Shown here one piece after another: positions 9,364 through 52,860 of a DNA stretch of 64,000 nt. The notes beneath the pieces are model-generated. The model worked only from the letters and a program-made list of their open reading frames with translations. It searched no databases and was not told the origin of the DNA. The stretch is taken from contig CM097882.1 in NCBI GenBank assembly GCA_044892505.1, positions 213,218,001 through 213,282,000 of the forward strand, written 5' to 3'. The translations under genes and the position numbers were made by a program. The DNA is from Schmidtea nova (Eukaryota). Each line of letters begins with the position of its first letter. The stretch's first letter is position 1.

Positions 9364-9688
9364 GATTTCGTGAGAAAATATATTGCAAATAAACCTGGCA
9401 TTTATTGGCTTGGTTATGAAATATGGCCTATTATCGGCTGGAATCAATCATTTAATTTTCAACACCTTCAACCAATATGGGGAGAATTTTATGGTTATAG
9501 AAACTTTGACCCTAAAAATGTTTCTGAATTTATCAATGCAAAGGATAGCAAAATTAAAAAACTCTGTGTTGTTTTAGACAACAGAATACCGTCAGATATG
9601 TTATATTGGAAACTCGAATACTGCTTTAGTCGCCATTTAGTTATATGTGATTTTAGCCAAGAAGGCTATGACGCTTTCAGCGATAATG
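9364..9688 (+). CDS. Exon encoding the C-terminal part of a C-type-lectin-like domain
   Basis: Acceptor TTCATTCAG| (phase 0). Translation has YWLG...W...LCVV...W...YC...VICD. Phase-1 donor G|GTAATT at 9688; if unused, the frame stops at 9714. EPN/QPD and WND motifs absent. Upstream exon not resolved. Confidence 0.65.
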
Positions 9689-10052
9689 GTAATTGGAATA
9701 ATAATTTTTTGTAGCATTATCTTATTTTTTTCGACTAAATCTTTCTTCTAAATATTTTTTTGCTCAAGAATAGCCCAACAATAAGTACAATTCCTATTAT
9801 ATTATAAATTATATATATACACACACACACTCATATGATTTTCTGCTCATAAATAATGAAAAATAGGTTTAATGTCGTTTAGATATAAAAAGATGTACCT
9901 TCTCCTCCCAACACCATAATATTTCCAAGTATTAATTTCTGATTATCACATCTCTTAAGAAAAGTGTTTCTACCACTGAAGAAACAAGAACATCTGAACG
10001 AGAACCTGGAGTAATGCATTCAATTTACAAAACAACATATTATCTTTATTAA

Positions 10053-10286
10053 CCCTTTCAATTTTTATTTTAATAATTCATGTAGTATTTATAACACAAA
10101 ATATTTATTGCTAATTTAGTTTGACGGGAAATTAAAAAACTCATAAAAACTATTGCTGCACACTAAATAAGTAAAATAAAATTATAAATAGCTTACTTGG
10201 CAATTCCGAGCACAGCACATATAAAAACACAATTAGTAATTATTAGAAATTCTCTGGGACAATATGTCCCTACAGTATTGAAAGGG
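10053..10286. mobile_element. piggyBac-type MITE (234 bp)
   Basis: TTAA|CCCTTTCAAT ... ATTGAAAGGG|TTAA; perfect 10-bp TIR with TTAA on both sides. Confidence 0.85.
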
Positions 10287-10396
10287 TTAAACAACCGATA
10301 TAAAAATCTATTAATGTATAATAACCATTATATAAGGATAAAATATTTCATTGTTTATTTGATGCGTTAAAACATTTCATGACTCCCCACTAACTA

Positions 10397-11105
10397 CAGG
10401 TATACCTTGCTCATACGGCGGGTTCGGTTCCAGATCACCGCGGTATGGCGGGTCACTTACTTTTTTTCACTCGCTCCCACGGTGTAGTTAAGCAACGGGC
10501 CAATATTATTTTATATAATTAAAAATTAAAAAACCAATTTTTATATACTTAGTTTTTTAAATATTGGGACCCAAATTCTTTTAGGGTCTCCAACTTATAT
10601 CGTTTTCTAATCATTGTAGCACTGGAGTAGCATTTTTAATTTCTTTTAAAAATTTATCTTTTGAGTTAATAACGGTACTCACTGTTTGCCGAGCTAGGCC
10701 TAGCCTAAGGCCTATTTCAGTGTTCGTAAAACCTTGCTCATGCAATGTTATCATTTCTAATTTTTTAGCCAAAGTAAGTGGCTTCCTACTTTTCTTTTCA
10801 CTAGGTTTAGGGCCATAGCTATATGAGTACGTATATTAATATAGATAGTAATACGTAATACAGCATCGAAGTTGAGAGCTATGAACAAACGCGTGCTAAC
10901 ACGATTGAAACAAGCTGTTGAATGCTGCGTGGCGGCGGAGTGTAGAACGATGACGTGTTGTTATTTTTGTTCCGCATTAGCGAAACGCTATAAAATATTT
11001 TTTGGCAGTGATGCATTGAGCCATGCGCTTTTCATGTAATTTTTTTGCGACCGCAGTATGAGCGAATCACCGTAAAGCAAGCGCCGTATGAGTGAGGTAT
11101 ACCTG
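10397..11105 (-). mobile_element. Internally deleted pogo/Tigger element
   Basis: 24-bp TIR CAGGTATACCT(TG/CA)CTCATACGGCG. Minus strand encodes [58 protein letters not shown] (Tigger CENP-B/psq HTH). Confidence 0.85.
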
Positions 11106-49310: not shown

Positions 49311-49887
49311 TGTAGAAAAACAATTATTTCGATTTAAGTCAAATAGACACAACGTATATTCAGCATTAACATCGATGGCAACTTTGACAGCCTTGTCCGT
49401 TGATTCTTATTAATTGTGCTGGAATTCTGTATTGTTTGTACATTACACAAATTGTGTTTGGGATTCGATGGTTTTTGGTTGAATTCTTTATTGGTTTCAC
49501 ACTACAAATTTTCACACTGAGAATTTGCTATTCCAATTGGAGTACATAATTGAGATGAAGACGAAAGATTTGTCATATTCAATGACTGATGATTGTTATT
49601 GACACGATCAGATAGTTTGTAAGTATTCGATTCAGATAGCTTCTTTTCACTCGGTATTTCCACATATCTCGGATTCGTCACGACGTTTGGATTTGAAAGT
49701 ATTTCATTTGACCTTTTTTGATTTAAATTAAAAATAGTTAGTTCTTGCTGGACCATGTTGGATTTATTTTAAAAGTGTATCTCAGAAAAAGTAAATATTA
49801 AAACAATGCTATTTAAATCTTCCATTCAATAATTATTTAATAAATTAATTAATTAAAAAAGAGAAATTTATAATCTAAAGCACTAAA
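49311..49887 (-). mobile_element. Solo-LTR-like element, family A copy 2 (577 bp), with an Asn/Ser-rich ORF
   Basis: TGTAG...CTAAA termini; perfect 5-bp TSD TAATC; first ~100 sense nt align with 27030-27125; ORF 49756-49502. Confidence 0.85.
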
Positions 49888-50679
49888 TAATCTTTAAAGA
49901 AAAAATAGAATTCTTTAAAAAATTTTTTAAAAATTTAGGTAAATGGATATTTTATTTTGAAAGTTTCTTGATGGTATATTGGTTTTTGAATCACCTGCAA
50001 CTTGGTTACGGTGATTTTACTTGTTCCGCAGAGCTTAGTTTAAGAAAAACTGCTACCACTAATTTAAGTCATTTAGAATGACTTAGATCGAATAATAACT
50101 ATTATAATTTGATGGTTGATTTATTTTGCAATTTAACTAAAAATTATTAGTTTTTTTATTTATTATAAATAAATAAATATATCTACATTATGTGAGTAAT
50201 ATTTCAAATGATTGGCATAACAACATTTATGACCGATTTCGTGAAACATTATAAATCAGTCTAATGAAAGCCTTATAAATTCTTTAACTTTTTTTCAAAA
50301 TATAACGTATAAAATACGTATAATATTAAAAAATTGAAATTCTTAATCGCCACAGTGTCAGGGACGTATTAGATCCTTACACGGATATCTAAATTTCTTG
50401 ATCTCATAATAAATTTCACAGACGCATGTTTTCATCAATAAAATAATTTTATCATGCGCAATCGTAATTTTTTGATTTTTTACAAAATTAAAAATATTAT
50501 ATACAAAGCTTTGAAATGTTGCTCCTTCACATTCAAATTTATCAACTAACAAAGATATTTTTCGATTATTCAAGATTTAGCACAGAGATGACAGACCAAG
50601 AAATTATTTTGGTTGTGGTCAATTAAAAGCGTCTTAAAAAACGCGATTCAAGATGTATTTGTTCAGAATGTAATGTTCC

Positions 50680-52443
50680 TGCTGGGTTTATGGGTGGGTT
50701 TTAAATAATTAATAATAAACAAAAAATAATTAAATACATAAGAATACTAAGGATGCCTCACCCATAACCATACATAAAAACAAATCGTCTCACTCGCGCG
50801 CCCCTAACTATTCCCTATCTAGTTAGGTTGGAACTGCGCGCGGTGGTTGAAAAATGCTGGGCAGATGAGCTCCATCGCTGGAACTACTCCCCATTTATTT
50901 TCACGGGTTCTAGAAGGTATTACGCGTTTATTCTGTCAATGTTTACACTTAACTTCCTTAACAAAAATAAAAAAAACGTCTTTTAAATAGAGATTCGAAT
51001 TAACTACGAACTCCTTAAACTATATAAAACACAAAATAATGCGCTGCACCTTAAGATTATATTTATTTATAAAAACTCTCGGGAATCTCCTCTACTAAGT
51101 ATAACTGTTCAAAATTCAAAATCACCGCTATGTCGTTGCATCGCTATGTGCAAAAATTTCTTGATCGAATTCTTCTTGCGAAAATTTTAATTTTGAAATT
51201 AAATCGCTATATGAGATGTAAATTCGTGTTAACTTAAAGATTATCGCTGAAAAATGCGCAGACCTCAAAACCTATCGTTATGTAAAACTCAAAATCATTG
51301 CTATGTAATAAAAATTTGTGCAACACTCAAAAATACTATCCCTATATGCAACACTCAAAAACTATCGCTATTAAAAATATGTTACCCAAATATTATCTAC
51401 CTGGTGTAACGATCACAAAATGTTTAACGAAATTATTCATTATGTGTAACCTCTATCAAATATTTCTCTACAAAATCCTATCTCACTCACCATCTCGTGG
51501 AACCATAAGTCCCAAAAGACGACTGGCACCCTTGCAGTGTGAACTACAGAGGACGCATATTTATATTTATAAATAACAATTTTAATTAACAAATAATAAA
51601 CATCATAGAATATTAATTTTTGAAAAAGTTAGCCTCAAAACTTTATTGTGACCTCTGAACAATAATTGACCCAACACATCTCACCAAAATAACAAAAAAA
51701 TACCCGTTCAAAATCGATCTCCACGACTGGCGAAATCAAAATCAATTTTTTTCTCTCAGTAAATTAATGCCAAGTTTAGATTGTGATTTTTCAACATCTA
51801 TTTATACTAATTTTACTGACGCTTACATATTTTGTTATTTACATAATTTATTAACGATTTAAACTTACTTATTAGTTTTAATAAGTGAGCATTTATTTAT
51901 CTTTCATAAATTAAACTTTATAATTTGATTTATTTATTTTCGAAAATATTTGTTTTTAATTCTATTAAATTAGGTGTGTATCTATTGTTTTATTGTGCAT
52001 TTATTGATTAAAACAATTTAATTTTAAATCTATTTTCATTCCTATCTCTGTTAATTTTGCGATATTTCAATGGAGATTTATTCTACAATATTTAATAAAT
52101 TATTTTCTTTATTCTGATACCGATTTTATTCTTTAATCATGATTTTCATAATCACTTTACAAGCACTGATCTTCCCCATTCAACTCTCGTGCAGTCCTTC
52201 GTGTGTAAATCCGACCTGCACTCAAATCGTGTGCTCTCCTTTGAGATGCCTCTTTTTTATCGCTTCAACCCTATCTCGATCGACTAATAAGATGCGGTTC
52301 GTATGACTACTATTGTACTTAACTGTTTTTATTTTCCCTTGCGTTATTTTACTGCTTAACGTCTTGTCGTGCGCTTCTCTTTGTATTTATTTAATTTTTA
52401 ATAAATTCTAATTAAATTTATTTTTGATTTCACCAGCCCAACA
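50680..52443 (-). mobile_element. Solo-LTR-like element, family B copy 3 (1764 bp)
   Basis: Termini TGCTGGG...CCCAACA; 4-bp TSD TTCC; conserved TATAAATA box; internal ATCGCTAT-type repeats at 51120-51420. Confidence 0.8.
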
Positions 52444-52724
52444 TTCCCTTATTTTTATCAGGTAAGTTTATTTATATATAATATTATATTTATATTATTA
52501 TTATATATAAAAAGTTTATTTATATTATTATAATATATAAAAAATAATTTTTTCTGAAAATAGCCAGGGCTGAAAAAGAAAATATTATAATTTTCCAATT
52601 TATGCTAAATTTCATTATAATTATTATAAATCATTATTCTGAAATGAAAATAAAAGTTATTAAAAATTCTACAATAAGATTTAAATTTTTTATACTTCAC
52701 ATTTGATAGATAATAAATATTTAG

Positions 52725-52860
52725 AATGTAATAGCTACGTATCCGTATCTGGAAAATGAGGATAATTATTGCCGTAATCCGACTAGCGATGGTAGTGGGC
52801 CGTGGTGTTTTGTTGACGTATTATCATTGGAAAAAGAATTTTGTAATGTTCCTCAGTGTG
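52725..52860 (+). CDS. Kringle 3, second half (phase 0-1)
   Basis: [45 protein letters not shown]; acceptor TTTAG|, donor G|GTAAGA. Confidence 0.9.

Follow-up and report, generated by a model that had tools for sequence, protein, structure and literature searches.

We analyzed a 64,000-nt stretch of contig CM097882.1 (positions 213,218,001–213,282,000 of the forward strand; hereafter the window), which is AT-rich (GC 18–40% per kb) and contains six plus-strand exons between positions 9364 and 52860. These encode, in order, a C-type lectin-like domain (CTLD), a kringle, an F-type lectin fold, a second kringle carrying an insert, and a third kringle. On balance, we favor the interpretation that these exons come from the middle of a single large and intact invertebrate gene for an extracellular mosaic protein, which would act in adhesion or as a receptor through protein contacts and not through canonical sugar or lysine binding. 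The canonical binding pockets are lost in all five modules, a feature not reported in an earlier note on this DNA, and 'lectin' thus names folds only.

Exon 1 (9364–9688, phase 0-1) encodes the C-terminal two thirds of the CTLD, exon 2 (16680–16949, phase 1-1) kringle 1, exon 3 (31239–31643, phase 1-1) the F-type lectin fold, and exon 4 (38728–39081, phase 1-1) the divergent kringle 2 with its insert. Kringle 3 is divided between exon 5 (39133–39242, phase 1-0), which supplies its N-terminal half, and exon 6 (52725–52860, phase 0-1), which supplies its C-terminal half. The five introns are 6991, 14289, 7084, 51, and 13482 nt in length. Joined, the exons yield 533 amino acids with no stops and 25 cysteines; the remaining two frames of every exon have 1 to 14 stops each. 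An acceptor and a donor are present on all six exons. The acceptors are AG in all six cases, and the donors comprise five GT and one GC. The GC donor belongs to exon 5 (CAG/GCAATT) and is absent from the earlier note. It was preferred because a GT at 39210, the other candidate for this exon, would remove the conserved CxxW of the kringle and was ruled out for this reason. Splice sites were ranked by percentile among all AG or GT sites using a splice matrix. From exon 1 to exon 6, the acceptors rank at 96, 97, 98, 95, 78, and 59, and the donors at 98, 98, 87, 100, 99, and 100, such that 10 of the 12 sites are above the 85th percentile. The six exons, with the junctions and phases that had been proposed for them, were confirmed, as were the intact cysteine patterns, the module cysteines being kept in all six exons.

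Exons 2–6 very probably belong to a single gene, because they share a stretch free of assembly gaps, exons 5 and 6 each encode half of the same kringle, and a mere 51 nt separates exon 4 from exon 5. All five are of the internal type, and exon 6 ends at a GT donor, from which it follows that the gene continues beyond it. Inclusion of exon 1 in the same gene is reasonably likely, and its connection to exon 2 is the weakest of the chain. Agreement in phase is weak evidence for one gene, since extracellular shuffled modules usually have phase 1-1, in separate genes as well. Accordingly, the single gene that had been proposed stands as likely for exons 2–6. Membership is less certain in the case of exon 1, from which they are separated by a gap and a same-strand open reading frame (ORF) resembling PSMG1.

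These features of intron 1 bring in the possibility of two neighboring genes, exon 1 belonging to a CTLD gene and exons 2–6 to another, with either a genuine PSMG1 gene or a join of scaffolds lying between them. We consider this arrangement unlikely, but it is the strongest of the alternatives. A gap of 160 N (16484–16643), not mentioned in the earlier note, lies 36 nt upstream of exon 2. The PAC1/PSMG1-like ORF (15621–16289, plus strand), also missing from that note, passes the Pfam PAC1 cut-off (28.8 vs 28.4), and an AATAAA at 16383 and a T-rich tract come after it. In addition, the frame of exon 1, if read past its donor, reaches a stop after 24 nt (9712–9714). Set against this, the exon 1 donor is at the 98th percentile, no first or last exon was recognized within intron 1, and the PAC1-like copy looks broken: its likely start is followed by a stop after 6 codons, and its end comes 24 residues beyond position 232 of the 283-position profile. 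The ORF also comes after a truncated TRM13 zinc-finger fragment (15003–15155, plus strand; E 1.1e-7), and a 63-nt piece at its 3' end recurs, at 84% identity, in a second chimeric cassette in intron 3. For these reasons the ORF and its surroundings are probably nonfunctional cargo, while a real PSMG1 containing a sequencing error is possible.

Exon 1 matches Pfam Lectin_C at E 0.046 to 0.22, below the cut-off, and has no PDB match at E 5; the ESM Atlas gave nothing but bacterial rows below 0.9, which were disregarded. Its CTLD profile score was equalled by 1 of 1000 shuffles and its cysteine pattern by 1 of 20000, the patterns for these and the following shuffle tests having been composed with the present exons in view. 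The CTLD tail pattern, defined by the spacing of Cys and Trp, occurs in exon 1 alone among 1877 six-frame segments. Exon 1 holds three cysteines, and the first CTLD cysteine must therefore come from an upstream exon. The C-type calcium/sugar motifs, EPN/QPD and WND, are both absent from exon 1, in which the aligned positions are DPKNVS and WKL.

Exon 3 falls just under the cut-off of Pfam F5_F8_type_C_2 (E 7e-6) and matches the striped bass F-lectin 3cqo at E 9e-10. Its AlphaFold model, built from a 21-row alignment, is an F-type jellyroll with a predicted local distance difference test (pLDDT) score of 87.1. The top 11 Foldseek matches of this model are all F-type domains (TMq 0.76–0.85; 2j1r, 2j22, and 1k12 being the best), with the model itself biased toward this fold, as its alignment was built from F-type matches. 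A word-index protein search with exon 3 gave 77 candidates, none significant. The fucose motif of F-type domains has been described as HX24RXDX4(R/K), with a His-Arg-Arg triad (PMC5712786). In exon 3 the triad positions are occupied by Val, Lys, and Asn, so that all three are changed, one of them conservatively. A loose form of the motif, kept by 91 of 224 related domains, is not found in exon 3. The cation motif (h2DGx) reads SVDGR, in which the DG core is retained and the last residue is Arg instead of a small polar amino acid.

The earlier note had regarded the product as a recognition protein. In the lectin sense this description was not upheld, as alterations affect the fucose triad of the F-type fold, the calcium/sugar motifs of the CTLD, and the lysine sites of the kringles (see below). 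We consider it improbable that this is one gene for a true glycan-recognition protein, serving in immunity or mucus by means of altered or secondary sugar sites. The nearly kept cation motif of exon 3 speaks for such a protein, and oyster F-type isoforms that lack the triad exist and may differ in specificity (PMC5712786). A HMMER search with exon 3 over 1.84 billion representatives gave 264 matches, of which 150 were listed and 89 of these 150 Pfam-scanned. Tandem F-type proteins dominate the listed matches (best 150 of 264), and an F-type domain is accompanied by a CTLD in 10 of the 150, which also favors glycan recognition; a kringle occurs in 0 of the 150, a list that favors tandem F-type proteins. 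The changes at all three triad positions and the absence of either sugar/calcium motif from the CTLD argue against sugar binding.

The six-cysteine spacing of kringles, together with the YxG, CxxW, and NxCR motifs, is found in exon 2, in exon 4, and in exons 5 and 6 joined, and was reached by none of 20000 shuffles in each case. Pfam Kringle matches exon 2, with its six cysteines, at E 2.5e-10 and exon 6 at E 1.4e-10, both above the cut-off, and exon 5 at E 1e-4 as the start of a kringle. Exons 5 and 6 joined score as one kringle (65.4 bits, vs a maximum of 9.3 in 1000 shuffles). The best PDB matches of the kringles have E values of 2e-21 and 1e-29. Exon 4 has six cysteines in kringle spacing, an insert of about 25–30 residues ahead of its NHCR motif, and no Pfam kringle match. 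Its profile score of 11.3 was reached by none of 1000 shuffles, by the narrow margin of 0.2 over the best of them (11.1); a single-sequence AlphaFold model was uninformative (pLDDT 42), and the ESM Atlas gave no usable match. A strong donor at 38886 raised the possibility of an in-frame intron within exon 4. By inspection, no later AG before the NHCR motif gives a length divisible by three, and the insert is therefore read as coding. The analysis supports the domain order of CTLD, kringle, F-type lectin, kringle, and kringle that the earlier note had put forward.

The lysine-binding site of kringles was defined, from features of plasminogen kringles 1 and 4, as an anionic Asp-x-Asp center, a Trp, and an Arg plus an aromatic residue near the C-terminus, and was located by alignment to plasminogen kringle 1. 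Kringles 1 and 2 lack both the Asp pair and the Trp. In kringle 3, Thr replaces the first Asp, and Glu-Lys replaces Arg-Tyr near the end. The word-index protein search gave no candidate for exon 2 and 13 candidates for exon 6, two of them significant. The single close relative in the databases, the 84-amino acid protein P0152, is 80% identical to exon 6, has a match that starts at about the exon 6 boundary, and carries the altered lysine-site residues of kringle 3 too. These three likenesses point to purifying selection on the altered kringle 3, which would thus be conserved rather than decayed. A metagenome scan with exon 6 yielded 18 loci, of which 17 have kringles and none has an F-type, C-type, or PAN domain; the match at L014 is apparently due to chance. 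Six of the metagenome contigs (L005, L007, L013, and L015–L017) contain long kringle arrays with frequent stops in the standard code, and a stop codon is possibly reassigned in them.

Continuation of the gene past exon 6 would also suit the head of an enzyme or signaling receptor, such as a serine or metalloprotease or a receptor phosphatase, with its catalytic exons beyond the window. This is partly compatible with the interpretation we prefer, and we hold it to be of low probability. In P0138 a tyrosine phosphatase, and in P0139 a metalloprotease, comes after F-type domains, and a planarian transcript with a kringle and a trypsin domain has been listed (PMC4795655), but no trypsin domain or other catalytic exon was recognized in 52861–64000, and P0152 ends in a short tail that Pfam does not match. 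That the exons are a pseudogene or a chance collection of exon relics is very unlikely: divergence of the domains and the failure to obtain evidence of expression would suit it, but all six exons are open and keep their module cysteines and splice sites amid decayed transposons, and exon 6 retains its close identity to P0152.

In the preferred interpretation, a single transcript would encode a protein in which the modules follow each other as beads on a string, in the order ...CTLD–kringle–F-type lectin fold–kringle with insert–kringle.... The gene would have been assembled by the shuffling of phase 1-1 modules, and the analysis supports the exon-shuffled extracellular protein that had been suggested. 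Its introns would have been enlarged by transposons. The low GC content, the 51-nt intron next to such enlarged ones, and the DNA and Gypsy elements could, as a guess, indicate a planarian, a group for which transposon-driven intron expansion has been described (PMC11410931). A secretion signal or single-pass anchor would be encoded outside the window. Neither a signal peptide nor an exon for a membrane segment was found in the window, and the joined protein has no strongly hydrophobic stretch of 19 residues (maximum 1.81). Further kringle, CTLD, PAN, or F-type exons and CCP repeats were likewise not found there. The product would be a long disulfide-bonded ectodomain or a secreted scaffold, its modules providing spacers and protein-binding surfaces, and would function in adhesion or receptor complexes through protein–protein or cell–matrix contacts. 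It would not act through fucose, calcium-dependent sugar, or lysine binding.

Several observations weigh against this interpretation. Neither a transcript nor a homologue of full length was seen, and intron 1 combines a gap with a same-strand PAC1-like ORF that scores above its Pfam threshold and carries a poly(A) signal. At the upstream end, the preceding CTLD exon was not found in 1–9363, where none of 9 candidate donors scored; at the downstream end, the exon 6 acceptor ranks no higher than the 59th percentile, and no exon corresponding to the tail of P0152 was found downstream of exon 6. The composition of the shuffle-test patterns with these exons in view counts here as well. Finally, loss of the canonical residues is compatible with other sugar sites.

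Judged from its residues, the predicted protein is not an F-type lectin or a lysine-binding kringle protein in the strict sense. Its F-type fold resembles eel AAA (1k12) and striped bass FBP32 (3cqo) in structure, with about 22–25% identity and a near-canonical cation motif, but exon 3 differs from these in lacking the fucose motif and in being a single domain between kringles. The kringles have the six-cysteine pattern of those in plasminogen, HGF, and prothrombin, and the PAN-kringle protein P0151 of Darwinula stevensoni likewise has kringles with long second loops. Unlike these proteins and other invertebrate PAN-kringle proteins, the gene shows neither a protease exon nor a PAN exon within the window, its lysine sites are altered, and lectin folds are interleaved with its kringles.

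There are also parallels among adhesion proteins. Drosophila Furrowed is a homophilic adhesion molecule (PMC4229721), and in Drosophila CG9095 the F-type triad is degenerate and the CTLD unlikely to bind sugar (PMC5712786). As in the present gene, F-type and C-type folds are joined in one chain in these proteins, and in CG9095 the canonical residues are lost in both. In contrast, Furrowed and CG9095 possess CCP repeats and a membrane helix, whereas the present exons have kringles instead and no helix was found. Tmed-krg1, an anchor protein of the polyclad flatworm Theama mediterranea, is a membrane protein with six kringles whose knockdown abolishes adhesion, and homologues have been reported in Macrostomum and Minona-type transcripts (PMC9229212). 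It too is a large extracellular protein with kringles. By its description, Tmed-krg1 differs in having six consecutive kringles, no lectin folds, and proposed lysine binding, while the kringles here are without a full lysine site. By analogy, the protein is plausibly like Furrowed/CG9095 and Tmed-krg1 in function. A more speculative proposal, to which we assign little probability, is that the gene belongs to a conserved but so far undescribed family of surface receptors of invertebrates, whose C-type, F-type, and kringle modules have all lost their small-ligand pockets; if the source is a freshwater or land flatworm, the protein could be a krg1 counterpart in temporary adhesion that holds glue independently of lysine.

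Automatic gene models of amphioxus and lophotrochozoans include proteins that combine a kringle with an F-type or C-type domain. In a limited literature search, which did not extend to published architecture tables that may contain it, a combination of kringle and F-type lectin was not found. F-type domains are commonly accompanied by C-type lectin, pentraxin, CCP, and FA58C domains, and the F-type lectin review that describes these makes no mention of kringles (PMC5712786). Given the limited searches, the order of CTLD, kringle, and F-type fold is probably a new arrangement within the known exon-shuffled extracellular mosaics. Such mosaics are common in invertebrates, so an unfamiliar order of domains carries modest weight by itself. 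Automatic annotation would label the gene as a lectin or as plasminogen-like, and the lost pockets redirect attention to adhesion or protein binding. A relation to krg1, if true, would provide a test of the lysine–kringle model of temporary adhesion.

Fused fragments of housekeeping genes form a cassette in each of two introns. The one in intron 1, cassette A (14570–16483, plus strand; left end approximate), consists of the TRM13 fragment and the PAC1/PSMG1-like ORF described above. Cassette B, in intron 3 (33670–34870, plus strand; ends approximate), joins a ubiquitin-like fragment (E 1.3e-8) to one of eIF3L/Paf67 (E 4.8e-21), with a stop between the two, and also holds the recurring 63-nt piece. 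We take the ubiquitin-like fragment to resemble RAD23, and the eIF3L-like fragment (34152–34676, plus strand) appears to have internal deletions that leave its frame open for 175 codons. The motif GTGTGCGC is common to both cassettes and found only at those two places, and a T-rich leader is likewise shared. Long terminal repeats (LTRs) or terminal inverted repeats were not found around either cassette. Pack-TIRs and Helitrons are known precedents for gene capture, and cassettes A and B may mark a family of gene-capturing elements. A 99-codon open frame on the minus strand (33446–33742), which heads away from cassette B, has a protein-like composition and no Pfam match.

The introns had been described in the earlier note as filled with transposable elements. 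The sizes given there were confirmed, and transposon remains were identified for introns 1, 2, and 5. A short pogo/tigger-like element (10396–11106) has 25-nt inverted repeats and a match to the CENP-B helix-turn-helix, and a mariner-like element (22434–23731) has 70-nt inverted repeats of 96% identity and a DDE match. Remains of hAT-type transposases, with matches to the spin-doc zinc finger and the hAT dimerization region, lie at 44456–46438 (plus strand) and 21539–21943 (minus strand). A Gypsy-like LTR element (55735–59472, minus strand) has 113-nt terminal repeats of 98% identity and matches to reverse transcriptase, RNase H, and integrase in a frame that is broken repeatedly. A second assembly gap is located at 4054–4270. 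A repeat of 0.4–0.7 kb is present in three copies of 69–80% identity (7106–7594, 36952–37623, and 51776–52445), one of which is near exon 6.

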